The position numbers and the translations under genes are program-made. The notes beneath the pieces were generated by a model. That model saw only the letters and a list, made by a program, of their open reading frames with translations. It searched no databases and was not told the origin of the DNA. Below, piece after piece: positions 3,758 through 34,251 of a stretch of DNA of 64,000 nt. Source of the DNA: a virus; IMG/VR virus record IMGVR_UViG_3300050821_003884, positions 16,898 to 80,897 of that record. One strand, given 5' to 3'. Every line of letters starts with the position of its first letter. Position 1 is the first letter of the stretch.

Positions 3758-4363
3758 TCACTCATAACAGCTCCAAACTTCTTCTAGGTCGAGAACGAAT
3801 CCCTGTACTGGATTTATGCCCGTAAGGCTGGAAGCTGAGGACACCTCGCCAATCAGGCCAAACGCATTGTAGATGTAGCAACGTCTGTCCTTCGGATCAA
3901 TCAGCCAGCCAAGAGCCGCACCATTTTTCGCCCAGCGCTCCATCTTTTCCTGAGCCTCTTTCAGGGAGTCGCTCGGAGAACGAAGCTCGATGACGAAGTT
4001 GGGGCAGACAGGCGGGTAGCCCTTCAGAGCACCTTTGGGCAGTTGCCCCAAGCGCTCCTCTGTAACGTAAGCAGCGTCTGGGCACATACGGTCACGGCTG
4101 GCTGGGGATGCGGCGTCCGGGAAAATAAATTCCGTGCTGGAATCGAAGCAGCGCCCTCGTCTGTGTGTCTTCCACCAATTACGTAGCTGCGCGGCGATCT
4201 CTGAGTTTGCGTCGCCAGTCTCACCACCTGTTGGCGGATTCATGAAAATTTCTCCTCCTCTAATTTCGATCTGCATAGAGCTGAAGGCGCGACACAACTC
4301 GTCGTATTCCTCGTCAGTAAGTTGCGGGTCAAAGATGACCCTGTGTGCTTGTATGGTTGCCAT
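3758..4363 (-). CDS. Uma2 (DUF820) family PD-(D/E)xK endonuclease
   Basis: CPDAAYV...CPNFVIELRSPSD...LGWLIDP. Confidence 0.85.
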   Translation of the reverse strand: MATIQAHRVIFDPQLTDEEYDELCRAFSSMQIEIRGGEIFMNPPTGGETGDANSEIAAQLRNWWKTHRRGRCFDSSTEFIFPDAASPASRDRMCPDAAYVTEERLGQLPKGALKGYPPVCPNFVIELRSPSDSLKEAQEKMERWAKNGAALGWLIDPKDRRCYIYNAFGLIGEVSSASSLTGINPVQGFVLDLEEVWSCYE

Positions 4364-4366
4364 GAT

Positions 4367-4792
4367 TCAACTCCTTATTGGTCGTTGCACCGACTTCTCC
4401 GTGTTGGGGACGCTGGGCTTGGGGCCGATACCGTCCCAGATATTGCGGCCCTGCTCCCAGCACAGGCCCATGCGCGTGAAATACGGCACGTCTGAGAGAA
4501 AGCCGAACAGGTGGTACTGATTACTCAGGTCCACCACCTGCGACTCTCGCGGATACATTTCCACCATTTCCGTCTCCGGCCCCAGCAGCTCATTTTTAAT
4601 TCGCTGGAAGTCGCGCCAGTCGTGCTTGGCGGTACGCTCGTTGTCCCGGATGGATAGGTGGATGATGTCCGGGCCGCCCTCCTTAGGGTTGGGATACCGG
4701 CGCATGATGACGTGATACCGGTTGTTGTGAAATAAAACTCCCTGACCGTCGGGCAATTGCTCCATCTGAAACGGCGACCAGCTTCTAGGCAT
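4367..4792 (-). CDS. Conserved phage protein
   Basis: HLSIR...DWRDFQRIKNEL.G.E...E.YP...N.YHL motif typical of a phage DUF. Confidence 0.65.
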   Translation of the reverse strand: MPRSWSPFQMEQLPDGQGVLFHNNRYHVIMRRYPNPKEGGPDIIHLSIRDNERTAKHDWRDFQRIKNELLGPETEMVEMYPRESQVVDLSNQYHLFGFLSDVPYFTRMGLCWEQGRNIWDGIGPKPSVPNTEKSVQRPIRS

Positions 4793-5219
4793 TCTGCTCC
4801 TCTGGCCCCGTCTCCTTCGTCTTTACCAGATACGTTGTGCGCCTCGGCTGGAGCGCCTTCAGCCTTGCGATCTGCTGGTCGAGGACGAACAAAAACGCCT
4901 TCTCCCTGCAAACACACTCGTTCTTCTTGTGGTCGCACGGGCCGAATCCGACAATCATGTCGTCGATGATGGTTCGCGCCTCGGTGAACACCTCCAGCAT
5001 CAGCTCGTAGCTCGGGGCGCGGGGAGCCTCTGTGCCCGTCTCGATCTGCGAAAGAAAAGGGACACTGGCATACGGCTCTGCGAAGCGGTGATCCTCGCCG
5101 TTCCAGCTTCTGATCTTGCACTTTGCGCAGCGATGGGGCTTCGCGTCAGCGTCCCACTCCCAGCCGCAGTGAACACATCTGCAATGGAAGACTGTCTTGG
5201 TTTTAAGGGTGATAGGCAT
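4785..5219 (-). CDS. C4 zinc-ribbon protein
   Basis: CVHCGWEW...CAKCKIRSWN. Confidence 0.6.
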   Translation of the reverse strand: MPITLKTKTVFHCRCVHCGWEWDADAKPHRCAKCKIRSWNGEDHRFAEPYASVPFLSQIETGTEAPRAPSYELMLEVFTEARTIIDDMIVGFGPCDHKKNECVCREKAFLFVLDQQIARLKALQPRRTTYLVKTKETGPEEQNA

Positions 5220-5272
5220 GGGGAAATGCTCTCCTGAAAATTACTTTTGGTGCGTGTCTACTCCAGCCCACT

Positions 5273-5617
5273 TTAATGAGTTGGCTGCCGGTTCTCGCGG
5301 AACTTGCGATGCAGCTCGGCGATACTCCTGCGGGCTTCGGCCACAGGCAGCCTGTGACCGTACTTCCTGCGAAAGGTTTCAACGCTGCGATCAAGCAACG
5401 CATCCCAGTTGTTCGCATCGATCAGGCCCGCACAGGTCTTGCACGCCGCCCAGTCGGACTCGGAATTAATGTTCAGCTTGCTGCCGTCCGGCTTGGGTAA
5501 CTGCGACACATTAAAATCTCTTGCCGGGTAATCGGCGTAAATGGGGCTATCAGAGCAAAAGTCGCAAATCGGCCCCTCCGGCGGCTCGCTAAGGTAAACT
5601 GTCTCTCCGCTTTTCAT
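5273..5617 (-). CDS. Hypothetical Cys-motif protein
   Basis: CDFC...WAACKTC, shared with the N-terminus of 9256..10521. Confidence 0.6.
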   Translation of the reverse strand: MKSGETVYLSEPPEGPICDFCSDSPIYADYPARDFNVSQLPKPDGSKLNINSESDWAACKTCAGLIDANNWDALLDRSVETFRRKYGHRLPVAEARRSIAELHRKFRENRQPTH

Positions 5618-5623
5618 TCTGCT

Positions 5624-5971
5624 CTATTCTACCACCGTGGTGTCAACTGCAACCTCGTGTGTCGTTCCATCCGGTATGGGTGGACGGCCAGCCACGGCGC
5701 GAAGCAGCCCCTCCTGTACGTTGCGGCGAACATCGAGGACAGCTTGAAGCGCGACAAGGGAAGTGCGCAGCGAGGCTCGCTCAGTCTCGGTGATGGCCGT
5801 CCCTCGCGCCACCTCCAGCAGGATTATGCGATGCTCATTTAAAAAATCTGCCGCAGCGTTGGCCAGCGCAGCGGTCGCTTCCTCGAACAGCTTTACATGT
5901 GCGTTGACGCGCTCGACGCCTTCTGGGGTCTGCAAGCCTTGGGGTGTGAGGTCAATCTCCTCGATTTCCAT
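5624..5971 (-). CDS. Hypothetical protein
   Basis: GGAGG RBS, co-oriented. Confidence 0.55.
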   Translation of the reverse strand: MEIEEIDLTPQGLQTPEGVERVNAHVKLFEEATAALANAAADFLNEHRIILLEVARGTAITETERASLRTSLVALQAVLDVRRNVQEGLLRAVAGRPPIPDGTTHEVAVDTTVVE

Positions 5972-6153
5972 TAGTAGTCCTCCGGTTCAATCGGTTCGTC
6001 TACATCCGCTTGGGTGTAGTGCGTGAATATTACTGGGCGGTAGCGTGCCAGCTTCTCGGCCTTGCACTTGGCGCAGACGCGGCAGAGCGGGATGCCTCTG
6101 CCGTCTTGCTCCCACCAGCTCTCCAGCCCAGAGCCACAGGAACAGGGGCGCAT
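5971..6153 (-). CDS. Small Cys-rich protein
   Basis: MRPCSCGSG...DGRGIPLCRVC; TAATG coupling. Confidence 0.55.
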   Translation of the reverse strand: MRPCSCGSGLESWWEQDGRGIPLCRVCAKCKAEKLARYRPVIFTHYTQADVDEPIEPEDY

Positions 6154-6635
6154 TAGCTTATCTCCTGCGGCGTCTTCCATGCCTGCTGGTTGCGGATTTC
6201 TAAAACCTGCTGAATGGATAGCTTGTCGATATCCCAGCCCTTGGCCTTGCAGTACTGCGCCACGAACTCGCCGCGCATGCGGAGGATGGTGTGCTGTTCC
6301 TGTGTACCGCCTGCGACGGTGACTCCACCGGGCAGTGCGATTTCTGGTACGTGGTTGGCCAGCGCATAGCGGGGCGTGAAGAAGTCTTCCAGCTTTCCGG
6401 TGTCGCGGTTGATGTGCTTGCGGATGCCGTAAATGTCGTGCGATAAGTCCTGCAAGGGGCCTTCCAGCATGCTCTTGAAGTCGAGCGCACAGGCGTTGGC
6501 GTGGCACGCCATAAGGTCCATTACCAGCGTGCGCTTGTCGTCAGGGTAGTGCGTGAACGCGGCCAGTGCGCGGTCAGCGACCTGCACAAGCAAGTCGAAT
6601 TCCGGCTTGGAAATTTCCCAGTTGGTGATCGTCAT
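6153..6635 (-). CDS. Conserved phage protein (DUF6874-like)
   Basis: MDLMACH...HDIYGIRKHINRDTGKL...FTPRY; GGAGG RBS. Confidence 0.6.
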   Translation of the reverse strand: MTITNWEISKPEFDLLVQVADRALAAFTHYPDDKRTLVMDLMACHANACALDFKSMLEGPLQDLSHDIYGIRKHINRDTGKLEDFFTPRYALANHVPEIALPGGVTVAGGTQEQHTILRMRGEFVAQYCKAKGWDIDKLSIQQVLEIRNQQAWKTPQEIS

Positions 6636-6874
6636 TTTAAATTTCCTCCAGTCAGGGCGCTGATACATGCCTCAGAGGGCCAGCGGTTGATGTCGCTGCG
6701 GCAGTCGCCGCTGTAGCCCGGTGGATGAGCGCCGTCGCAGCAGCCGCAATCTTCCCAGTCGTCGGGCGGATTTTCGGCGTAGGTAGGGTTCGGTGCCAGC
6801 TCCCATGCCTTGGGGTCTACATAGAAACCCTTCGACTGGGCAACAGGCTGGTTATTGCTGGGTTGGGTCGTCAT
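6632..6874 (-). CDS. Hypothetical protein
   Basis: AGGAG RBS; CGCCDGAH motif. Confidence 0.5.
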   Translation of the reverse strand: MTTQPSNNQPVAQSKGFYVDPKAWELAPNPTYAENPPDDWEDCGCCDGAHPPGYSGDCRSDINRWPSEACISALTGGNLK

Positions 6875-6966
6875 GTCATTACTCCTACTGAGAAAGGCGA
6901 GGATACTCTCAACAAAGGTCAGCATCGTTTCCCTCACGCAAATCGGTTTACCTGCGGTTGCGGCGT

Positions 6967-7386
6967 TCACTTCTTACTGCTCCTGTAGGCGTCGATCAGC
7001 TCCTGAATCTGGCCGTCCGCTGCGGACAGCAGGCTCTGAGCCTGATCTTTCACGACATTGCTACCGCTCTGGAAGGCCCATTGCTGAACAAAAAGGTCGC
7101 CATCGTCGGTCTGCATTGTTAAGGCAACCGCCTGAATACTGGAAGAGTCCTTGGCAAGGGCATCGCTCAGCGTGACCACGTGCAGCCTCCAGCGGGTGCC
7201 CGTGGACGCGGATTCGTAGCGCGGACTGCGGGCAATATCATCGCGCAGGGCGGAGCAAAAACGTCCGCCGACAAAGTCGTCGGCTTCGTTGGTGCAGGTG
7301 ACTTCGATAGGCTGCTTGTTGGGCTGTGCATGGCACAGGCTGGCGGTGAAAACTAAGGCAGAGAGTATTACAGTAGTAAGTTTCAT
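6967..7386 (-). CDS. Secreted protein with signal peptide
   Basis: MKLTTVILSALVFTASLCHA-Q; start-associated motif upstream. Confidence 0.65.
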   Translation of the reverse strand: MKLTTVILSALVFTASLCHAQPNKQPIEVTCTNEADDFVGGRFCSALRDDIARSPRYESASTGTRWRLHVVTLSDALAKDSSSIQAVALTMQTDDGDLFVQQWAFQSGSNVVKDQAQSLLSAADGQIQELIDAYRSSKK

Positions 7387-7425
7387 TTCCCCTCCCGGAA
7401 ATCGGTTTATGTGTAGTTGCTGTTT

Positions 7426-7620
7426 TTAATTTGCGTGCTGGTGCAGGTAATCCCAAGCTTCTCGGGCAGTGAAGCTCCCGAGACGCCTTCCAGCCCCGTT
7501 GTAGATGGTCCTGCGCTGATCGTCGTTCTCTTTGCGGTGCGTCCAGCCCCGGCTGGCGATGGCTTCGCTCAGAGTCTGCTCGCCTGCGACGACAGTGTTG
7601 ACATAATGTTCGTGATCCAC
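7426..7620 (-). CDS. Hypothetical protein
   Basis: GGGAGGG RBS and GTG start. Confidence 0.55.
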   Translation of the reverse strand: MDHEHYVNTVVAGEQTLSEAIASRGWTHRKENDDQRRTIYNGAGRRLGSFTAREAWDYLHQHAN

Positions 7621-7654
7621 TTTTCCCTCCCGAAAATTGGTTTATATGTGTTGT

Positions 7655-8200
7655 CTATTCCGGCAACCCGACGAAAAAGTCTTCTACCCTGAGCGCTCCC
7701 TTGAGCGGAGCGGGCAGCGTTACATCGTCGGTTGAATCCAGAAGAGCGGACAGCGTTCGCCAGTAGGCGATGACGGTGCGCTGCTTGGGATCGACTACCC
7801 ACACCACATCGACACGCGCATTCAGGTAGATATCCACCTTCTCACTCGCGTCCTGATTCGGCGACAAGATTTCCACCGCCAGCAGGGGAGGAACGTTGAC
7901 GTACGCGTCGTCCTGCATGGCCCGTCTCCACGCTGGCCATGAAACGATGAACAGGTCAGGCGAGGGCATGTCGTAGGGTGTCAGCTTGATGTTGGAGTCG
8001 CCGTTGCAGATGTAGCCGCTGTCCTTACACGCAGCGTCGAGCAGTCTCCGAATGTTCTGCTGCACCTGCTGGTGCAGCGGCTTTGCGTCCGGTGTCATCA
8101 CTATCCTTCCGTTAATCAGTTCGTCGCGAAACCCCGGAACGCCAGCGAACGAATGCTCGTACTGCTCGACCATGATGGGGTGCGTGTTTATGGTTGCCAT
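7655..8200 (-). CDS. Uma2 (DUF820) family endonuclease
   Basis: ELING, PSPDL, PLLAVEILSP, VWVVDP. Confidence 0.85.
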   Translation of the reverse strand: MATINTHPIMVEQYEHSFAGVPGFRDELINGRIVMTPDAKPLHQQVQQNIRRLLDAACKDSGYICNGDSNIKLTPYDMPSPDLFIVSWPAWRRAMQDDAYVNVPPLLAVEILSPNQDASEKVDIYLNARVDVVWVVDPKQRTVIAYWRTLSALLDSTDDVTLPAPLKGALRVEDFFVGLPE

Positions 8201-9255: not shown

Positions 9256-10521
9256 TCACTGGCCAAGCCCTCGCGTGTACGGCTCGATCCAGATACGTTT
9301 CTTCTGTTGCAGTTTGCGCTCGCCGAATGGCTGCTCGCGATAGAATCCCCGCACCCAGTGGAAGCGGGGCGACGCGTGGTGGCCGCCCTGATACTCGCTC
9401 GCCTCCCGGCGTATGCGGTAGTCCTCGCCGATGATGCTCGGGGTCCAGAATTCCTTCGCGGCCTTCTTCTCGCTTGCAGGGAAGTGCTTTAAGCGTGTGC
9501 CCAGCTTCACCATGTCCGGACGGGAAGTCATCAGGAGCAGAGTCCCGAAGATGTAGTGAATTAAATCAACCAGCATCAGGTTGTCATCGTCGGTCATCGC
9601 TGGCTGGTAGAACCATCCCGATTCGTGGCGGTCATCGCTGAACCGGGACACCATCTTATCTGCGTCGGGCAGGCTGATACGCTCCCCAAACGCGTCTAAA
9701 GGCATATTCCAGTGGGTGAGATGTCCGGCCTCGGTGAGCGCCAGCATAGTCAGCGCTCCGTTGACGGAACCATAGGGTCGTCCGGGGATGAGCTTGGAAA
9801 TCAATCTCTCATTTTCCCGGAAGCGGCTATAGGCAATGAATTCTACATTGCCCTCGGTGGGGTGCCGCATGCTCCCCTTCGGCAGCATAAAGATCGCCGC
9901 CTCGAAAGGCAGCGGCATCGCGTACCAGTCGATCTCGCCGGGGGGAGTCGTCTGCCGGATGGCCTCGGCGATGTCTTTCCCCAGCCAGTACATCGGCATC
10001 TGGTAACGGGCAAGCTGGGAGGCTACAAGAAACTCGTATTGTTCGCTGCGCCCTACGGTTCCCTGCATCACCTTCAAGGCGATGGCGGCAAACTGACGCG
10101 CTGGTTCTTTCGGGCTGTAGTAATTTCCGCAGCGCGGCGACTCGGAATAAATTCGCGGATAGCAGATGCGCCACAGTTCGGGATAATTCCTTTCCAGCTC
10201 ATCGTAGGTGTCGCGAATCTCCTGCGCGGTAAACTCCATCTTCGGGATATGCCGCCGGACGGCATAGCGATGGAACTCAGAGAGAGACATATCGCCAGCC
10301 TGATTGAGAAGAACTGGGGAAAGCTTGGCCATCTCCGGGTCTGCCATCATGGCCTTCAGGAGCCGCGCATGGACGGCATCCCAGTTATCAACCTCGATGA
10401 ACCCCTCGCATGTCGCGCAAGCCATCCAGCGCCACACCTGCTGATCCTCGCCGCTGCTGGTGCGGCTCGCTGCGTAGACGACGACTGGATCGGGTCCGGC
10501 GCAGAAGTCGCAGCGAGACAC
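9256..10521 (-). CDS. Hypothetical phage protein, 421 aa
   Basis: N-terminal CDFC/CATC; C-terminal HASPRFHWVRG...WIEP phage motif. Confidence 0.65.
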   Translation of the reverse strand: MSRCDFCAGPDPVVVYAASRTSSGEDQQVWRWMACATCEGFIEVDNWDAVHARLLKAMMADPEMAKLSPVLLNQAGDMSLSEFHRYAVRRHIPKMEFTAQEIRDTYDELERNYPELWRICYPRIYSESPRCGNYYSPKEPARQFAAIALKVMQGTVGRSEQYEFLVASQLARYQMPMYWLGKDIAEAIRQTTPPGEIDWYAMPLPFEAAIFMLPKGSMRHPTEGNVEFIAYSRFRENERLISKLIPGRPYGSVNGALTMLALTEAGHLTHWNMPLDAFGERISLPDADKMVSRFSDDRHESGWFYQPAMTDDDNLMLVDLIHYIFGTLLLMTSRPDMVKLGTRLKHFPASEKKAAKEFWTPSIIGEDYRIRREASEYQGGHHASPRFHWVRGFYREQPFGERKLQQKKRIWIEPYTRGLGQ

Positions 10522-10547
10522 CGCCGTGGGTATATATTTCTCATGGT

Positions 10548-10763
10548 TTAGAGATTGCGCACGAGGACTTCGTTGTCGTAGTCCCGCTTGCGTCGCTGGT
10601 TAACGGCAGCGCTCATGGTTGACTGGTGGAACTTCTCCGCCAGATACCAGCGCAGTTCGATACCATCCCATCCTTCCGGCATGGCAGCGACTTTGCTCAG
10701 CGCCTCACTCTGTACGCTGGCCACAAGCTCACGGATAAACGTCTTTTTCTGTTGTTTCGTCAT
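10548..10763 (-). CDS. Hypothetical protein
   Basis: GGGAGG RBS. Confidence 0.6.
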   Translation of the reverse strand: MTKQQKKTFIRELVASVQSEALSKVAAMPEGWDGIELRWYLAEKFHQSTMSAAVNQRRKRDYDNEVLVRNL

Positions 10764-11973: not shown

Positions 11974-12255
11974 TTACTCTCCCGATTCCGCTGCCGCTTG
12001 CCAGACAGTTGTTCCGGCTTGCTCAGCCCAGAACTGGTCTTTACATGGCTCCCACTTCAGGCCGCTCCAGTCGGGCTTCGTCTTGGACACGGTGAAGTAT
12101 TCTTGGCCGACTGCATAGATGGCCAGCTTGCCCGTGTGTCCGTACTGGTAGCGGTAGTCTTTAATGTCTGCCGCATCGAAGCCGATAGTCCCGGCAATGA
12201 TGGCTGCGGCGTTGACGCGAACTTTTTTCGTTGTCGTTACCTTGCTCACTGTCAT
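11974..12255 (-). CDS. Hypothetical protein
   Basis: Coupled ORF. Confidence 0.55.
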   Translation of the reverse strand: MTVSKVTTTKKVRVNAAAIIAGTIGFDAADIKDYRYQYGHTGKLAIYAVGQEYFTVSKTKPDWSGLKWEPCKDQFWAEQAGTTVWQAAAESGE

Positions 12256-12734
12256 CGCACGCCTCCAGCCGTCGCTCTTTCCTGCTCGGCCACGCTAAGC
12301 AGAAGGTCTTCCTCTCTCCACTTCCGTAGTTTCAGCGAATCTTGAATGTCGTTCAGGATTCCCAACTCTTCACGCTCCAGCTTCTGGCTGACCTCGGCGC
12401 TGTTTAGGGTATTTGCCCTCCGCACCGCTACATCGTAGGAGTTCAGCTCCTCCAGCCTCATCATCTTGTCGAACATCATGTCGTCAGCCAGCGACTTCGA
12501 TTGTTTTTTCGCCGCGTCCCGCCACTCGTCTACAGCACGCCAGTCCATATCGAAGGGATACGAACTCGCAATCATCTGCGTTGCTACCTGCCGGAACCCC
12601 GGACTCAGCGTGAACATTCTGTAGATCACCTTGCCCCCGCTCCACAGAAGAAGCCCAACAAACCCTAAAAATATCCTCAGTGCCACGTTCTTTTGTATGC
12701 TTGGCGCAGTCGTTGTCGTTGTCATCTCTCCCAA
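12252..12734 (-). CDS. Membrane-anchored hypothetical protein
   Basis: One hydrophobic helix (IFLGFVGLLLW). Confidence 0.55.
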   Translation of the reverse strand: MGEMTTTTTAPSIQKNVALRIFLGFVGLLLWSGGKVIYRMFTLSPGFRQVATQMIASSYPFDMDWRAVDEWRDAAKKQSKSLADDMMFDKMMRLEELNSYDVAVRRANTLNSAEVSQKLEREELGILNDIQDSLKLRKWREEDLLLSVAEQERATAGGVR

Positions 12735-12841
12735 ACTCCTTTTCCTGTAATTGTGAAATTTAAATCTCAGTGGCCGCGCTACCGGGAGGTGAACGCGGCC
12801 ACTCTCGCACCCAGCTATACTCCTCGCTGTAAGTGCGAAAC

Positions 12842-13105
12842 TTAAACCTCGTCGCCGAAGTTCGGACCCCAGCCGCCGTAGCAGGCGTCAGAGTGGTATC
12901 CGGTTCCTATGCATCCGGGGCAATCTGGCGTTGGGGCTTCCACTGCCCACCATCTTGCGCATCCGCACTTCTCGCCATTCGCCATAACCACGTCGCATGG
13001 GATAGGTGCCCCTTTCGGGGGATTAGGCTTGCCGTCCGCATTGAGCGGGGAAGTAGCCAGCGTGTGGTGGGTACACCAGTCGTGCCCACAGTATTTGCAT
13101 CTCAT
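12842..13105 (-). CDS. Cys/His-rich small protein
   Basis: MRCKYCGH...; GGGAGGG RBS. Confidence 0.5.
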   Translation of the reverse strand: MRCKYCGHDWCTHHTLATSPLNADGKPNPPKGAPIPCDVVMANGEKCGCARWWAVEAPTPDCPGCIGTGYHSDACYGGWGPNFGDEV

Positions 13106-13157
13106 AATCGAACCCTCCCGGTTTCTTCTGTAAATCGTTTTAGGTGTGAACCTGCTG

Positions 13158-13496
13158 TTAGAAACCAGCGCGTTTTTTAATTGTTTCCCAGCCGTTGTCG
13201 AGTGTCTGCACTTCGTGGCCATCAGGGAAGACGGCGTCGGACTTAATAAGTCCTGTCAAGCCGTAGCCCAGATACTTCTTGGCCGAAGCCCACCTGCCAA
13301 ACGGTCTGACAATCATGTCCCCCACGATCAATTCGTGCGCGTAGCCCTCAGTGACAAGCCGGGTTGGCGTTGAGATGAGCGCCGCCGCCAGAGTGAGGCT
13401 GTGGCCTCGCTCGATTCCCATGTCCTGCATGAGGAGCTGAACCGGGGTGTGTAGAGCATGAATCCCAAACATTGCCTTGATGTAAACGTCGTCCAT
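13158..13496 (-). CDS. Hypothetical protein
   Basis: RBS motif. Confidence 0.55.
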   Translation of the reverse strand: MDDVYIKAMFGIHALHTPVQLLMQDMGIERGHSLTLAAALISTPTRLVTEGYAHELIVGDMIVRPFGRWASAKKYLGYGLTGLIKSDAVFPDGHEVQTLDNGWETIKKRAGF

Positions 13497-13529
13497 CGGA
13501 ACCCTCCCGGTTCTTTCTATAAAAGCTGT

Positions 13530-13901
13530 TTACGTGTGAGTGTAGCCGTCCGGCTCGATGCCCACGAACATACCGCACCATTTGATCCCGGCGAAGCGGT
13601 CGGAGCCGATGCCGCACTCCTGTATCCGGGTGAAGAACTCCCGGCGATCCTTTGAGCCGTCATGGCTGCGACGGTAGAGCTTGTTGATGGCCTCGACCTG
13701 TGCCGGGGTCATCCAGCCGGGGATAACAACGTGCCCCTCGCCCTCGGCCAGACGCTTGTCGCGATCCTCTGAACCTGCGACGTAGCCGTCGAAGTACGCC
13801 TCGCGGTTGAAGACTCCCCGCGTGTTCGGCTGCTCGGAGTCGGAGCCGTGGCGGTATCCCGTGGAATAGTCGCTGTTCGTGTTTGTCTCTTCTGTGCTCA
13901 T
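13530..13901 (-). CDS. Hypothetical protein
   Basis: C-terminal WCGMFVGIEPDGYTHT phage motif. Confidence 0.6.
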   Translation of the reverse strand: MSTEETNTNSDYSTGYRHGSDSEQPNTRGVFNREAYFDGYVAGSEDRDKRLAEGEGHVVIPGWMTPAQVEAINKLYRRSHDGSKDRREFFTRIQECGIGSDRFAGIKWCGMFVGIEPDGYTHT

Positions 13902-14539
13902 GGCTGCTCCTGTAAATCGGTTTCGTCGTCATCCTGCGATGCGTGGCTATCCCGGATGTCTCCAGCGGCCAGCCAGAGGATGCGGGTAAGGTTCTGGTTG
14001 TGGTCGGATAGTTCCTCTGCGTCCCACGTCCCATAGTCCTCCAATTCCCGGCGTAGCGCTTCCGGCTTGATCTTCGCCAACTGCTCGGCAATAACCGGGT
14101 CGGCTTGCAGGGCTTGCACGTCGGCTTCGCAGTCTCCGGCATGGGAAGCGGACTCGGCCTGTTCCAGTGTCATCTCGAACTCAACGCCATAGTTGCCGCT
14201 GAACCAATATTTCTTTTCGCTGGTATCCTCGGCATACGCAAACGTCGCCAGAGGGTAATCCTGCGCTACCTGCCGCTGCGCGTCCTGAAACGATGCGGCT
14301 CGCTTGTAAATGTCGATCTGGTTGTCTACGCCATCCGGACAGTAGGCGCGGTAAATGTGTTCGCCTTTGGTTGCTCCCCAGTAGGCTCCGCCGTCGTCGT
14401 AATCGCCGTCTACCCACCTGAGGCGAATCAGCAGGAAGGCTACGGGCCGGGACTTGGAGCCGTCGTCGTGTACGTCGCTGCGGCCCATGCTTGCACCGTA
14501 CCGTGAATACGCTTTCGTTAACGCTGGAACCTGTGCCAT
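13898..14539 (-). CDS. Hypothetical phage protein
   Basis: SRYGASMGR, DGDYDDGGAYWG motifs. Confidence 0.6.
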   Translation of the reverse strand: MAQVPALTKAYSRYGASMGRSDVHDDGSKSRPVAFLLIRLRWVDGDYDDGGAYWGATKGEHIYRAYCPDGVDNQIDIYKRAASFQDAQRQVAQDYPLATFAYAEDTSEKKYWFSGNYGVEFEMTLEQAESASHAGDCEADVQALQADPVIAEQLAKIKPEALRRELEDYGTWDAEELSDHNQNLTRILWLAAGDIRDSHASQDDDETDLQEQP

Positions 14540-14617
14540 TTTAAAATTATTCCTCACTGGTAAATCTGTTTTTGGGTGTGGTCGCGGCTTGCTTGGCTGC
14601 GACCACTTGGAAGGGAA

Positions 14618-15505
14618 CTACGCTGTCTTACGCTTGGGTACGAGCGTACGGTACGCCTTGTGCGCGGAGATGAGCTTCTTCTCTGCCGCGTCCGTGGCAT
14701 CTTCCAGCCAGTGATCCACTGCGTGAGCCAGAGCCTCGGCTGCTTCATAGACGGAGCTGGTCACCTTGGGTGCTGGCGCTGGCTTCGCTGTTCCGTGGGC
14801 CTTCGCGTCCTTCGTCTTACCCTTGGCGGCGATCACGTTGCTGACCTTGACGCGGGTCTTGCCCTTCAACGTGTTCTTGGTTTCCGCGATGACCTCCTTC
14901 TGCTTGTCCTTGCTCAGCTTGGTAAGCTGGACGGCAGCGGTGATCTTCACCTTCCCGTCACGAACGGCTTGTGCGGCTTCAGGAGCCAATTCCACCAGTG
15001 CGGCACGGTCTTTCACCCACTTCACCGCAGTCGCCTTCTCTTCGGGCTTCTTCGCCTCAGGAAAATAGATTTCAGCAATCTCTTCCAGAGACTTCTTGAA
15101 GCGCTTCTGCCAGATGCCGATGTTGTGTGTGTCGTCCATCGGCGTGGTGTCCTTGCGGAAACGGTTCTCGGCAATGGCTGCGGCGAAGGCTTCTTCGTCG
15201 GTCAGCGTCTCGTAGGTCGCCTCAAGCTTGATGAGCGGCTCGCCCTTCTTGGCTAGGCGGCTGTTCAGCAGCTTGACGGCACGCCAGCGGCGGTGGCCGT
15301 AGACGAGCACGGGTTGACCAGCGTCATTCTTGCGCACCAGTACGGGTGTGCGCTGGCCGTTCTTTTCAATATCTGCGGCCAAGTCATCGACATCGGTGTT
15401 CTCGATGCGCCCGTTAAGCTGCGGATCGAGCAGGATGTTCTCAGGGTAATCAGCGACCAGAGTGCTGGTGCGCTTCGTTGTTTCGTTTGCGAATACTACA
15501 GCCAT
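14618..15505 (-). CDS. ParB/Srx N-terminal domain protein
   Basis: LAADIEKNGQRTPVLVR...GHRRWRA...AENRFR. Confidence 0.8.
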   Translation of the reverse strand: MAVVFANETTKRTSTLVADYPENILLDPQLNGRIENTDVDDLAADIEKNGQRTPVLVRKNDAGQPVLVYGHRRWRAVKLLNSRLAKKGEPLIKLEATYETLTDEEAFAAAIAENRFRKDTTPMDDTHNIGIWQKRFKKSLEEIAEIYFPEAKKPEEKATAVKWVKDRAALVELAPEAAQAVRDGKVKITAAVQLTKLSKDKQKEVIAETKNTLKGKTRVKVSNVIAAKGKTKDAKAHGTAKPAPAPKVTSSVYEAAEALAHAVDHWLEDATDAAEKKLISAHKAYRTLVPKRKTA

Positions 15506-22801: not shown

Positions 22802-24139
22802 TTAGTCGGCGACGTATACCGTCTCGCCGAAGGGTGCGACCAGTGGCTGCCCTCTGTAGTCGCGCTCTTTAGTCGCAAGCCATAGGACGGGAACCTCCGG
22901 CGCTACCAGCGGGAAGGTGCCCTCAAGGTCAGTGATGCAGATGCAGCAGACAGGCTGTGACTCATCCTGTTCTATCGCTTCCAGCGCGGGAATGAAGTTC
23001 GTTCCGCCGCCGCCTTTTGGTTCCCACGTCAGCGGCTCGCCGCGTTCCAGCCGTACAATGCTGCACACTCGCGCATCCGCCATGTACAGCGTTACGCCCG
23101 AGGGGTCGCATTCATCTAGTACGCTCTGCACGATCTGGCGAGCGAAGTCCAGCGCCACATCGTCAATGCTGCCCGATGTGTCTACCATGATCGCCACCTC
23201 GCCCATGCGGTGAGCATAGAGCGCGGGAAGGTACGTACCCTGCGCAAGGTAACGCGTGTTTGGACGCGTCCAGCTATAGTCGCTCGCTGTCCGTTCCTGC
23301 ATCCAGCGCAGTACCAGACTGCGCACGTCTACGCGGGGCTTCAGCGCGTCGGCAATCACACGCGCCAGACCGCCGGGTAACTCGCCCTGCGACTTGGCCA
23401 GCGCTGCCGCTGTTGCGACCGCCTCCTTCCACTCCTGCTCGCTCGGGGCTTCGTCGCCGTCTGCATCCGGGCCAACCGGAGCATCTCTGACTTCGCCCTG
23501 ACTGTTGCCGCTGCCTTGCTGCTCGCCGCCGCCTTCGCCGTCGCTGCCTTCGCTCTGGCCTTCGCCGTTGCCGTCACCATCCGACTCGCCGCCTTGCTCG
23601 CCGTCACCGTCGCCGGTGCCGTCGCCTTCGTCGTCAGCGTCTCCGGGTTGGCCGGGGTCGCCGTTGTCGTCGGGCTGCTCTTCGTTCTCCTCATCTTCGT
23701 CGGGCTGCGGTTCAGGTTCCGGCTTAGGTTCCGGCTCCTGCTCTTGCTGGTGGCCGTGAATCCATTCCGCCGACTTGCCAATCTCCTCGCCCTCTGCATA
23801 GTACGCATCCGGCGGGAGGGTAAAGCCAGACGTTTGCAGTTCCGTATTGATCGCCTTGTCGCAAGCGATATTCCACGGCTTCATACTGCGACCGCCACGC
23901 CGCCACGGATGGCCCAGCGCGACGTGCAGTACCTCATGCGCTACCAGTCCGACAAGCTCGCCGTGGCTCAGTGAATCGACAAACGCCGGATTGTAGCCCA
24001 GCGTTCGCCCGTCTACCCATGCGGTTTCGCATGTTGGGTCGGCTTGCACCTTCAGACGCAGCGCAAGCGAACCGAAGAACGGCTGCTCTAAGATCAGCGA
24101 AGTGCGAGCCGCAATAAATTTACCGTGTGCTGTACTCAT
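22802..24139 (-). CDS. Metallopeptidase-vWA protein (DUF2201-like)
   Basis: AHEVLH (HExxH), acidic G-rich linker, MIDAS DTSGS, GGGTNF, ITD. Confidence 0.85.
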   Translation of the reverse strand: MSTAHGKFIAARTSLILEQPFFGSLALRLKVQADPTCETAWVDGRTLGYNPAFVDSLSHGELVGLVAHEVLHVALGHPWRRGGRSMKPWNIACDKAINTELQTSGFTLPPDAYYAEGEEIGKSAEWIHGHQQEQEPEPKPEPEPQPDEDEENEEQPDDNGDPGQPGDADDEGDGTGDGDGEQGGESDGDGNGEGQSEGSDGEGGGEQQGSGNSQGEVRDAPVGPDADGDEAPSEQEWKEAVATAAALAKSQGELPGGLARVIADALKPRVDVRSLVLRWMQERTASDYSWTRPNTRYLAQGTYLPALYAHRMGEVAIMVDTSGSIDDVALDFARQIVQSVLDECDPSGVTLYMADARVCSIVRLERGEPLTWEPKGGGGTNFIPALEAIEQDESQPVCCICITDLEGTFPLVAPEVPVLWLATKERDYRGQPLVAPFGETVYVAD

Positions 24140-29837: not shown

Positions 29838-30161
29838 ATGGCGGAACAACCGTTGCGGGAACTTTACCAGCGTCTAAACCATTTGCTGTACGACGCCTCG
29901 CTGACTATCGACCACTTCGAAGCCAGCCCGGAACTGGACAGGCTGCCCAACGTGGCCGACATGGGAGCGCGTCGGGTGGGTTACCCGGAAACGGAGAAGT
30001 ACTGCCGGTTCAAGGTGGACCAGATGATCGCGCATGCCGAAGCCATCCACGACGAAATGGACAGGGTGGCAAAGGTACTGGAAAGGCTGGCGGCTGAAGT
30101 GCAGCCTTCCGTGGCGGAAACGGGTCCGTGGCGCGAGCTTTTACGTTTTAATAAAAAGTAA
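29838..30161 (+). CDS. Hypothetical protein directly upstream of the array
   Basis: GGGAGGGG RBS. Confidence 0.6.
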   Translation: MAEQPLRELYQRLNHLLYDASLTIDHFEASPELDRLPNVADMGARRVGYPETEKYCRFKVDQMIAHAEAIHDEMDRVAKVLERLAAEVQPSVAETGPWRELLRFNKK

Positions 30162-31775
30162 GCGCCATCAGAAGTAGAGCGTCAAGCCAAAGAAATCGTG
30201 CGTGCCAAGTAATTTGCGTGAGCCAACTGATACGCGAGCGCCATGAAGGGAGAGTGAGCCGCTATGCTGGAGAGCGCCAAATGAAGGGAGCGGTACACTG
30301 GGGCGTCCGAATCATGGCCGATGAGAGTACCACAGTGTCAGAGTGAACCAAACGAGTGATATAAGGGGTTTTTGTACATTAACCATTGTCTAGGCGAGCA
30401 CCACGAACAGCGAGTGAATCATGGGACATGAGAGTGCCAAGAGGCGGGAGTGAATCAAGCAAATTGAGAGTACCGGGAAAAGGGAGTGGCGAGCCATTTG
30501 CGGATGCGAGTGCCAAAGCAAGCGTGCGAGCCAGCCTAAGTGAGCGACAGCCGTTCTTGATACGAGCGCCATGGAGTGGGAGCGAACCATATCTTGAGTG
30601 AGCGCCAAAATGGTGGTGTGAACCACCGAAATTGCGAGTACCAAAGTAAATGCGTGAACCGGAAAGCTATGAGAGCACCAGAATCAGGGAGTGAGCCAAA
30701 GATCGTGAGAGCGCCAAAGGCCGAGGAGCGAACCATCATTGCTGCGAGCACCATTAAAGTTGCGTGAATCAGTAATCATGCGAGCACCAAAAGAGGTGAG
30801 TGAATCAGACATGACGAGAGCGCCAAGATCAGCGAGTGAACCAGTAATTATGCGAGCACCAGAATAATAGCGTGAACCAATCTAGCAGCGAGCACCAAGA
30901 CGATAGAGTGAATCATGCAAACTGCGAGTGCCACGCCCGGAGAGTGAACCAAAGTATGAGCGGGTGCCAAACCAAATGCGTGAATAAACGAATGATACAG
31001 GTGGCTTTTATAATTTTAATTTCAGCCAAAATTACTTGCGAGCGCCATCGTAAGAGTGAACCAAGTCTTTGGCGAGTGCCGGGAATCCCGCGTGAGCCAA
31101 TAGGTAGTGCGAGCGCCAAAGTGACAGTGCGAACCGAAAGACGCGAGATGCGCCAAAGAAAATGCGTGAACCGTAATGAAAGTGAGCGCCAAGTTCAGAG
31201 CGTGAACCAAGTTGATTGCGAGCACCATTAACGGCGAGTGAACCAACATGGATGTGCGTGCCAAGCGCATGGAGTGAAATGAGTGATACCGGGGCTTTTG
31301 CTTTTCAAACCATTACATCGGCGGGTGCCAATAAACGAGCGTGAAATTAACCAGTTCAAATGCGCAGTACCAAATAATCCGCGTGAACCACAAAGTAGTG
31401 CGAGCACCACAACACCGGCGTGAACCATATGCACCGCGTGTGCCATAGTAAAAGCAAAAGCCCCGGTATCGCTCGTTTAACCAACCTTACGGCGAGCGCC
31501 AAGTTGGAAGCGTGGAACCGGAATCAGAGTGAGCGCCAAATACGCTGAGTGAAACCATGGGTGTTGCGAGCACCAGTAAGACTGCGTGAACCAAGATCAG
31601 GGAGAGTGCCAATCGATGAGAGTGAACCAAGTACACCGGGAGTTACCAAAGGAGTTGAGTGAACCAAAGAGTGTTGCGAGTGCCATAACTGCGGAGTAAC
31701 CAACCCACAAGCGAGTACCAAAGATTACGCGTGAACTAATTCATTTGCGAGCGCCAAGGAATCGGAGTGAACCAA
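30161..31775 (+). repeat. TIGR-like dual-repeat guide array, segment 1 (~40 units of 36 nt)
   Basis: Alternating G(A/C)GTGAACCA and GNGAG(C/T)(A/G)CCA repeats separated by 8(-9)-nt variable spacers. Confidence 0.85.
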
Positions 31776-31794
31776 TCAGCAGGGGAGGAGGACC

Positions 31795-31953
31795 GTGAAA
31801 ACTTACACCGTGCTGCTCAGGGACCGCAGTTATCACGAAATTAAAGCCATGAACGAAAACAGCGCTTACAACAAGGCCCTGCGCCGCTTCGGAATCCATA
31901 GCGTCTTTGCCGTCTGGCGGACCCGATCAGCGCCCGGAGTCTTTAAGGATTAA
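31795..31953 (+). CDS. 52-aa ORF embedded in the array
   Basis: GGAGGAGG RBS, GTG start, MKTYTVLLRDRSYHEIKAMNENSAYNKALRRFG...; no repeats inside. Confidence 0.6.
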   Translation: MKTYTVLLRDRSYHEIKAMNENSAYNKALRRFGIHSVFAVWRTRSAPGVFKD

Positions 31954-31962
31954 GGGAACAAC

Positions 31963-32250
31963 AGCCAGTGTAGATGCGAGCGCCAAGATACCAGTGTGAG
32001 CCGATGTACAGCGAAAGCCATCTTTGACGGGAGTACCGGAAGGATTGAGTGAACCAATGTCGAAGGTGAGCACCACGGTATAGGAGTGAACCAATAGATG
32101 CGAGAGCGCCACAGCCATAGCGTGAACCAGCTTGATAGTGAGTGCCAGATATAGGGAGTGAACCAGAACCCTAGAGAGCGCCAAGATTGAGGAGTGAATT
32201 TGAAAGAAGTTACCCCGGATCGCGTGCGAGTGCCGAATCCAAGGAGTGAA
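31963..32250 (+). repeat. TIGR-like array, segment 2 (~7 units)
   Basis: Same repeat alternation up to the Tas start codon. Confidence 0.85.
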
Positions 32251-32259
32251 TTTTAATTT

Positions 32260-33276
32260 ATGAGCACCATCGCACCCATCGCTGAAGTCATGGAGCCGCT
32301 CAAGCGGCTTACGCGGGATTTAGCCAAAGCCGCCGTCACCCTGTCCGCGCACGAGGCGCGGTTTCTGGTGGACGCCTACTACATGATGCAGAAGAACCGC
32401 ATCGCCGCCGCGCATCAGATTCGTACCCTGAGCGCGGGCAACGAACCCCACACCGTGCTGGACTGGCTGGAAACCCAGAGCGAGATGCTGGAATCGCAGA
32501 TCAAACGCGCTCTGGACAAGTGGACGGACGCGAACCCGGTCGGCATCTGGGCAAAGAGTATCACCGGCATCGGCCCCGTCATCGCGGCGGGATTACTGGC
32601 GCATATCGACATCACCCACTCGGAGACGGCGGGGCATATCTGGTCCTTCGCCGGACTCAATCCCGAGATGGTGTGGAAGAAAGGAGAGAAGCGGCCTTTC
32701 AACGCGTCGCTCAAAACCCTGTGCGCCTTCAAACTGGGCGAGTCGTTCGTGAAGGTGCAGGCGAATGAAAACGACATCTACGGCAGGGTCTTCGCCATGC
32801 GCAAGAAGCAGGAAGCGGAATACAATGTGGCGGGCAGGTTTGCCCAGATAGCCGCGACGAAGGCGGCGATGGTTGGCAAGTCCACCGACGCGTACAAGGC
32901 GTACAGCGCCAACCTGCTGCCCCCGGCGCACATCCATGCGCGGGCCAGACGCTACGCGGTAAAACTGTTTTTAGCCCATTACCACATGGTGGCTTATTTC
33001 CAGCACCACCAGCGGCTGCCGCCCTTTCCCTACGCCTTCTCCCATCTGGAAGGGCACATCCACTTCATCGAGCCGCCGCATGCGGATTTGATTCCGGGCC
33101 TGCCTGCGGCGCTGAATATCTACCAGTTAGAGATGCGCAACCGGCCAAGGAATTTTAATCCACGACAACCAAAAGCTATGAGCGCACCAATGCAGATGAG
33201 TGAACCAGTGTCGCCGGGTGTACCAAGAAACGAGAGTGAACCGAAGCCGAAAGGCAAAAGGAAGCGCAAGGCGTAA
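32260..33276 (+). CDS. tasA: Nop/IS110-related RNA-binding protein without a nuclease domain (TasA-like)
   Basis: Coiled coil (LVDAYYMMQKNRI), SITGIGPVIAAGLLA and IWSFAGL motifs, HIHARARRYAVKLFLAH; no DEDD RuvC, HNH or IS110 catalytic SG; flanked by 36-nt arrays. Confidence 0.8.
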   Translation: MSTIAPIAEVMEPLKRLTRDLAKAAVTLSAHEARFLVDAYYMMQKNRIAAAHQIRTLSAGNEPHTVLDWLETQSEMLESQIKRALDKWTDANPVGIWAKSITGIGPVIAAGLLAHIDITHSETAGHIWSFAGLNPEMVWKKGEKRPFNASLKTLCAFKLGESFVKVQANENDIYGRVFAMRKKQEAEYNVAGRFAQIAATKAAMVGKSTDAYKAYSANLLPPAHIHARARRYAVKLFLAHYHMVAYFQHHQRLPPFPYAFSHLEGHIHFIEPPHADLIPGLPAALNIYQLEMRNRPRNFNPRQPKAMSAPMQMSEPVSPGVPRNESEPKPKGKRKRKA

Positions 33277-34052
33277 ACCACAGTACTTGCGAGCACCAAG
33301 CAGTCGGAGTGAACCAGAGAATCGGAGAGCACCAAGCCAAGGGAGTGAACCAGCACACGAGAGAGCACCAAGGAGCGCGAGTGAACCAGTAAGTTAGCGA
33401 GTACCAAGAACCGCGAGTGAACCATTAGCAGTTGCGAGCACCAGAACTAGGGAGTGAACCAGTAGCCACGTGAGCACCAATATCGGTGAGTGAACCATCA
33501 TGGTTGTGAGCACCAGAGGAAACACGTGAACCAAGATTTCCGTGAGCGCCAATGGACGAGAGTAAACCGGAAAGCGGGAGAGCACCAAGCGGATAGAGTG
33601 AACCAAACCAGCAATACCGGGGCTTTTGTACTTTGAACTAATTCATCAGGGAGCGCCAAAAAGAATGCGTGAACCATGGGCCATGCGGGTGCCAAAGCAC
33701 GAGAGTGAAAACCATTCCGCGTGAGCGTACCAAAAATGTCGCGTGAACCAGAGTCGTTGTGAGTGCCATACAAAGGGAGTGAGCGGGTTTTGTACTTAAC
33801 CGATTATCAGGCGAGCGCCAGCGTCGAGGAGTGAACCACGAGCCGCGAGAGCACCAATGCTGCGGAGTGAACCAGAAGGAGATGAGAGCGCCAAGGCAGG
33901 GAAGTGAACCAGTGTACCAGTGAGCACCAAAATGAGTGAGTGAACCATTAGATTAAGGGAGCACCAATAGTACGGCGTGAACCAAAAAGCGAGAGAGCGC
34001 CAAGTTGGAAGTGTGAACCAAAGGACATGAGAGTGCCAGACAAAGGGAGTGA
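33167..34052 (+). repeat. TIGR-like array, segment 3 (~22 units)
   Basis: Example AACCA-CAGTACTT-GCGAGCACCA-AGCAGTCG-GAGTG; starts inside the 3' end of the Tas ORF. Confidence 0.85.
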
Positions 34053-34251
34053 AATTAAATTCAGCTCCGGCGTGCGTGGCAAGTACGCCGGGAAGCTGCC
34101 GCTGGTGGCCGACGTGAGTATTAGCATCACCTGCCCCAAGTGCGGGATGACGAGTTACAACCCGAACGACGTAAGCCAGCGTTACTGCGGCAACTGCCAT
34201 GCATTTCACGACGACATGAAAGAGGGGTTTGAACGTGGCCCTAGAAGCTGA
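34027..34251 (+). CDS. Small zinc-finger protein (start uncertain)
   Basis: ITCPKCGMTSYNPND...YCGNCH phage motif. Confidence 0.55.
   Translation: MRVPDKGSEIKFSSGVRGKYAGKLPLVADVSISITCPKCGMTSYNPNDVSQRYCGNCHAFHDDMKEGFERGPRS

Follow-up and report, generated by a model that had tools for sequence, protein, structure and literature searches.

TIGR-Tas systems are compact RNA-guided DNA binders that need no protospacer adjacent motif and are of current interest as tools. Published TIGR arrays start and finish with truncated edge repeats and typically hold 5 to 15 units (PMC12045711); a TIGRFinder survey gives a mean of ~16 units per dual-repeat array. SpTasH self-processes its guides via residues Y289 and H296 (PMC13421893), and a Y/H loop of this kind is reported as typical of dual-repeat systems. 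TasR cleavage leaves 8-nucleotide (nt) 3′ overhangs, and the nuclease-free MbTasA shows guide-dependent binding of double-stranded DNA (dsDNA) in an electrophoretic mobility shift assay (EMSA), with reversible repression and no cleavage (bioRxiv 10.64898/2026.09.09.750476). Here, we analyzed a 64,000-nt window, bases 16898 to 80897 of the single 80,897-bp virus record IMGVR_UViG_3300050821_003884 (~81 kb, an uncultured phage with a complete-looking genome), and we conclude with high confidence that it carries a phage-encoded dual-repeat TIGR-TasA system. All coordinates are window positions unless genome positions are stated. Every feature of a dual-repeat TIGR-TasA locus that can be checked in sequence is present, and this identification is supported by the match to published systems (PMC12045711) in the layout of the array, the fold of the protein, the lack of a nuclease domain, and the phage setting. 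The core of the locus consists of a protein gene between two arrays:

30179 to 32253, + strand: upstream TIGR array, ~49 loop repeats in 8 blocks, spacers of 8 nt and some of 9 nt
32260 to 33276, + strand: tasA (product P0001, 338 amino acids), with a predicted coiled coil and Nop domain at residues ~28 to 277, Y258 and H266, and no nuclease domain
33162 to 33243, + strand: five half-repeats (~2 guide units) in frame within the 3′ end of tasA, encoding part of a disordered tail
33271 to 34056, + strand: downstream TIGR array, ~20 loop repeats in 3 blocks, the last repeat being a 3′-truncated edge repeat, GAGTGAA

On the + strand, both flanks of open reading frame (ORF) 32260-33276 show the octamers GTGAACCA and GAGCRCCA in alternation, one every 18 nt, and Tandem Repeats Finder detects the array with periods of 18, 36, and 73. 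A position information profile over 90 repeat pairs resolves two 10-nt repeats, GNGTGAACCA (G-N-G-T-G-A-A-C-C-A) and GNGAGYRCCA, separated by 8 spacer positions that carry 0.0 to 0.3 bit each, rising to ~0.5 bit at spacer B positions 1 and 2. The terminal CCA (box C) reaches 1.3 to 2.0 bits in both repeats, and both open with G-N-G followed by U/A-G, a box D common to edge and loop repeats as membership of the dual-repeat type entails; position 2 of each repeat is semi-variable. An earlier interpretation made from the letters of the window alone (the sequence-only reading) had proposed a 36-nt unit with spacers of 8 nt plus a semi-variable flank, and the profile and parse bear this out in detail, with the unit AACCA-A-GNGAGYRCCA-B-GNGTG recurring at a 36-nt period. 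A chained parse from 30179 to 34056 yields 141 half-repeats in 12 blocks, with ~49 loop-type repeats upstream and 22 downstream of tasA, or ~70 guides in total, in good agreement with the ~70 units (47 upstream, 22 downstream) counted in that reading. Clean edge-A-loop-B-edge units number 58, of which 41 have 8+8-nt spacers and 14 have 9+8-nt spacers; the 9-nt spacers are almost confined to spacer A, after AACCA (14 versus 1). The pattern GNGWGNNCCA-N8-GNGWGNNCCA, allowing at most 1 mismatch, matches 83 times, always on the + strand and within 30198 to 34038, whereas shuffled sequence gives 0.10 matches on average and never more than 2.

The spacers, which the sequence-only reading had described as nearly all different, include no duplicated spacer pair, and one spacer B is present twice. 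They are purine-rich overall; spacer B carries A at position 1 in 39 of 57 cases and A or G at position 2 in 48 of 57, with C nearly absent. A CRISPR-Cas locus was considered and ruled out, as the array has two alternating 10-nt repeats with 8-nt spacers, not a single repeat of 25 to 36 nt; no cas families turned up among the ORFs scanned. Every array block in the window starts with a 5′-shortened xAACCA and finishes with GAGTGA(A), and so do two orphan mini-arrays elsewhere in the genome (described below). Because the blocks are bounded by truncated GNGTGAACCA, as published arrays are by truncated edge repeats, we infer that GNGTGAACCA is the edge repeat and GNGAGYRCCA the loop repeat.

The product of ORF 32260-33276 is TasA, as judged from its predicted structure. 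With an AlphaFold2 model of P0001 built from 47 homologues (mean predicted local distance difference test score, 83.6) as the query, each of the top 10 Foldseek matches is a TasH or TasR chain (probability, 1.00), and a phmmer search of PDB ranks TasR (9mty; E 8.7e-13) and TasH (E 5.1e-8) ahead of IS621 (E 2e-3). The structural comparison that the sequence-only reading had suggested as a check places both Tas proteins first as well: in VIA-align, TasH scores Z 18.7 (220 residues; root mean square deviation [rmsd], 3.5 Å; model residues 28 to 277 against chain residues 66 to 309) and TasR scores Z 18.1 (193 residues; rmsd, 2.5 Å; model residues 31 to 276 against chain residues 112 to 322), ahead of ISCro4 of the IS110 family at Z 12.6. 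Before the aligned part there are 27 residues in P0001 (helical or disordered), versus 65 in TasH (HNH) and 111 in TasR (RuvC); this leaves no room for a nuclease domain, and P0001, which also has no nuclease Pfam match, is therefore a nuclease-free TasA. Both parts of the earlier description of the protein stand, namely, an IS110/Nop coiled coil with GIG/AGL motifs, here seen in GIGPVIAAGL, in the TasH/TasR fold, and in a match to PF02371, and the lack of a RuvC DEDD domain, an HNH domain, or a recombinase serine.

That Pfam match, the only one and a weak one, is to Transposase_20 (PF02371; residues 99 to 136; E 1e-5); the PHROG assignment is phrog_4285, labelled transposase (E 1.3e-47), and IS621 and ISCro4 are the next structural neighbors after the Tas proteins, all of which would also fit a domesticated or decayed IS110-family transposase flanked by satellite repeats without guide function. 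We consider this very improbable, given that the IS110 match spans only the coiled coil and the RNA-binding part (ISCro4 chain residues 125 to 320), with nothing matching the N-terminal DEDD domain, and that Tas structures score far better than IS110 structures. The repeats themselves likewise speak against a satellite, as they carry box C, keep a fixed spacing, and enclose spacers devoid of information, and so does the conservation of the array in relatives with different spacers. Nop5 and Nop56 do not appear in the structural match lists, which Tas, IS110, and coiled-coil matches dominate, and a relationship is not excluded thereby. A Nop domain and a box C/D-like layout are common to small nucleolar ribonucleoproteins, and the guides might accordingly target RNA in the manner of box C/D small ribonucleoproteins, with the Nop-like protein directing RNA modification or binding. 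However, the ORF scans revealed neither a fibrillarin nor an L7Ae partner, TasR is inactive on RNA substrates, and TasA bound dsDNA in EMSA (bioRxiv 10.64898/2026.09.09.750476), all of which make an RNA target scarcely credible.

P0001 keeps the Y/H dyad of guide processing. In a BLASTP alignment to SpTasH, H266 falls on the catalytic H296, while Y258 is one position off Y289; across the family alignment of 47 homologues, H266 is invariant and Y258 is at least 90% conserved. The C-terminal tail, from residue ~296 to 338, is disordered in the AlphaFold2 model, and its array-encoded stretch is followed by a basic sequence, KPKGKRKRKA; a 2026 preprint describes tas genes that hold guide units where the encoded protein is disordered. 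More than 5,000 proteins match P0001 at E ≤1e-3, and because most of these homologues are 265 to 300 amino acids long, the C-terminal 40 to 50 residues of P0001 are an addition, which is shared by one 96%-identical protein (P0002). At the other end of the gene, the AGGAG before the tasA ATG combines the end of a spacer with the GAG of the final edge repeat (window 32230 to 32270), and the first tasA codons, ATGAGCACCA, resemble a loop repeat; this start sequence is also kept in two related phage contigs, L002 and L003.

The arrays of this phage extend beyond the two listed above. Two orphan mini-arrays built from the same repeat pair lie on the + strand at genome positions ~10424 to 10655 and ~12550 to 12785, ending 6.2 and 4.1 kb before the window start, with ~6 units each and ~12 together. 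They occupy intergenic gaps of an operon without a tas gene nearby. An ORF at genome positions 12013 to 12699 reads into the second of them and has an array-encoded tail, like that of TasA, and the next gene (genome positions 12786 to 14726) encodes an SMC/Rad50-like ATPase. The whole genome holds ~80 guides at three sites and one tasA.

Within the main array, the blocks are divided by a junction element of ~25 nt with a consensus near CGAGTGATACCGGGGCTTTTGTAC, which occurs as five direct copies and one inverted copy and nowhere else in the window:

30351 to 30375, + strand: junction element copy 1, between a block end and a 5′-truncated edge repeat
30988 to 31025, + strand: copy 2, diverged, containing TATAAT
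31274 to 31305, + strand: copy 3, the left arm of a 32-nt inverted repeat
31450 to 31481, − strand: inverted copy, the right arm of the inverted repeat
33606 to 33630, + strand: copy 5
33787 to 33810, + strand: copy 6, 5′-shortened

The arms of the inverted repeat are 91% complementary and lie 144 nt apart; this pair (31274-31305/31450-31481) could form a 29-bp stem around the ~4 guide units that it encloses (z −5.4). Single copies of the element fold no better than shuffles. A role as promoter or terminator was rejected, there being no sigma-70-like or terminator-like signal on the + strand, and no copy was found in the array blocks or at the block boundaries of L002 and L003.

All TIGR-TasA parts lie on one strand, within a + strand operon, and the array starts immediately downstream of the ORF 29838-30161 stop codon and extends to the next gene. 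On the + strand, the locus shows no sigma-70-like promoter and, beyond the tasA reading frame, no terminator-like site, and no rho-independent terminator follows the array blocks. As the locus has no sigma-70-like promoter or terminator of its own, co-transcription with the operon is the simplest reading. The mechanism that we propose would involve self-processing, recognition of 16-bp sites by tandem spacers, and binding without cleavage that results in repression. The sequence-only reading had likewise proposed guided DNA binding that silences without cutting, a function demonstrated for MbTasA (bioRxiv 10.64898/2026.09.09.750476) and predicted for this locus. In this model, the arrays would be transcribed together with the operon, and a TasA dimer would bind each unit and cut within the edge repeat via the Y258/H266 loop, releasing 36-nt guide RNAs (tigRNAs) of the form AACCA-spacerA-GNGAGYRCCA-spacerB-GNGUG. 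At an uninterrupted 16-bp site, spacer A would pair with one DNA strand and spacer B with the other, and the 8-nt 3′ overhangs left by TasR fit a layout of A followed by the reverse complement (rc) of B. The nuclease-free complex would then stay on the DNA and block transcription or replication.

We searched the phage's own genome (80.9 kb, arrays masked) for the 16-mers A+rc(B) and rc(A)+B with gaps of 0 to 2, using both spacer phases because the edge assignment is inferred. There were 0 matches at ≤1 mismatch, and 2-mismatch matches were at the level of shuffled pairings; the guides therefore exert no control over this phage's genes through exact or nearly exact pairing, and self-regulation was rejected. 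Guides from the window against pieces of L002 and L003, and L002 and L003 guides against this genome, likewise gave 0 matches at ≤1 mismatch in either geometry or phase, and rival-phage targeting was rejected to this extent. Given that none of the ~70 guides and ~12 remote ones finds a match in this genome, they most likely aim at DNA of the host or of rival mobile elements.

TasA might act other than as a simple repressor, for instance as an RNA-guided DNA bender or tether that aids recombination, integration, or partition or that recruits a nuclease in trans. Faure et al. (PMC12045711) raise DNA bending, integrase help, and ParB partnership for TasA, and in this phage the orphan arrays share an operon with the adjoining SMC/Rad50-like ATPase, while an HNH endonuclease gene is present at window positions 22802 to 24139. 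Nevertheless, no ParB-like or other conserved partner gene was found beside tasA among the flanking ORFs, the HNH gene lies 8 kb off on the other strand, and the only direct TasA tests gave reversible repression and no cleavage (bioRxiv 10.64898/2026.09.09.750476). On this balance we regard a bending or tethering role as improbable and favor repression by guided binding.

Related phages show how such arrays change. L002 and L003 are IMG/VR phage contigs of ~120 kb whose TasA proteins are 71 to 77% identical to P0001; they carry the same two repeats in arrays of 75 to 77 units, and very long arrays are therefore a trait of this clade. No spacer pair is common to the window and either contig. 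Between L002 and L003, TasA is identical over all 295 residues, and the flanks are 98 to 99% identical at the DNA level. Comparison of their arrays (L002 positions 3954 to 7882, L003 positions 4070 to 7982; ~159 half-unit spacers) found 64 spacers identical, 25 differing at 1 to 3 positions, ~29 as unlike as random pairs, and 79 in unit-sized gaps. Common units are collinear and interleaved with unshared ones, not added at one end, and many units have been inserted, deleted, or replaced. Because the guides in this genome occupy three sites, include no self-match, and share none with phages whose TasA is 71 to 77% identical, one could tentatively see in the ~80 guides a fast-turning repertoire against host or rival DNA, with the junction elements bounding exchangeable sub-array cassettes, a reading that we consider possible but rather unlikely. 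If true, it would point to recombination-based renewal of TIGR spacers.

The closest relatives of P0001 in species genomes come from Acidobacteriota metagenome-assembled genomes and one isolate, which hints at a soil host. The isolate, Acidobacteriaceae bacterium KBS 96 (6.69-Mb scaffold), encodes a TasA 52% identical to P0001 and a six-unit array (L007 positions 5790 to 6010) with repeats GAGAGAACCA and GAGCGAGCCA and 8-nt spacers, and it offers a cultivable setting for TasA biology. Its six guides gave 0 exact matches in its own 6.7-Mb genome and two 1-mismatch matches, with ~0.9 expected by chance, in a low-power search of one geometry and one phase. Should the host of the phage be identified, its ~80 guides would provide strong power, as exact 16-mer chance matches are expected at ~0.2 per 5-Mb genome for the whole set.

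Several observations weigh against the identification of the locus as a functional TIGR-TasA system. Some units are degenerate, with 2 to 3 mismatches in the repeats or spacers of 7, 9, or 10 nt, and box D here is G-N-G plus U/A-G, compared with the plain UG of TaTIGR. The assignment of edge and loop repeats has the block boundaries as its sole basis. Finally, searches of this phage's genome and of the L002 and L003 pieces turned up no natural target, and guide function is thus only predicted.

In the rest of the phage, PHROG and Pfam scans recognize a terminase large subunit, an HNH endonuclease, and an ATPase, and most other large ORFs have no PHROG or Pfam family match. No DNA-level similarity to deposited phages was found, and among these phages a Tas relative was detected only in Salicola phage CGphi29, the source of SpTasH. 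The ORFs flanking the locus belong to no Pfam family and have no counterpart in the related loci compared; Rfam and tRNA scans gave no matches. A 183-nt gap in the upstream array is occupied by a further reading frame:

31795 to 31953, + strand: small ORF of 52 amino acids with a GTG start and GGAGGAGG 5 nt upstream

This ORF is preceded by a strong ribosome-binding site; it has no Pfam match and no homologue in the related loci compared.

Earlier work already covers the type of system, the role of TasA, 10-nt repeats set 8 nt apart (SpTIGR), and the occurrence of guide units within tas genes, and the locus is an unusually large member of a published kind (Faure et al. 2025; 2026 literature), not a new system. 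The locus is well formed, and the size of its array lies at the upper end, but alone it leaves knowledge of the family unchanged. Like FpTIGR of Flavonifractor plautii (Faure et al. 2025, PMC12045711), it has a solo coiled-coil and Nop protein without a nuclease, alternating edge and loop repeats that end in CCA, a 36-nt unit, arrays on both sides of tas, and truncated edge repeats at block ends. It differs from FpTIGR in its 8-nt spacers (with 10-nt repeats) versus 9-nt spacers, from typical arrays of 5 to 15 units in its ~70 units plus ~12 remote ones, and from FpTIGR-type loci in an array broken by a recurring junction element and in a tasA 3′ extension encoded by guide units. SpTIGR-TasH of Salicola phage CGphi29 (PDB 9w03, 9w04, and 21kl; PMC13421893) is likewise phage encoded, with 10-nt repeats, of which one ends in AACCA, and 8-nt spacers; its Y/H dyad aligns with that of P0001, and TasH is the best structural match. 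However, TasH has an N-terminal HNH nuclease (~65 residues) that P0001 does not have, cleaves DNA, and is 25% identical to P0001, and the Sp array holds ~12 units. MbTasA and catalytically dead TasR (bioRxiv 10.64898/2026.09.09.750476) are, like P0001, nuclease-free Tas proteins, and the repression that they bring about is the source of the mechanism proposed for P0001; MbTasA originates from a Minisyncoccota bacterium, whereas P0001 belongs to a phage. IS621 and ISCro4 share with P0001 the coiled coil and RNA-binding domain but have N-terminal DEDD RuvC-like and catalytic serine domains and one bridge RNA per element, neither of which is a feature of P0001. Set against all of these, what is notable in the present locus is the size of its array, its remote orphan arrays, its junction element, and its guide-encoded TasA tail.

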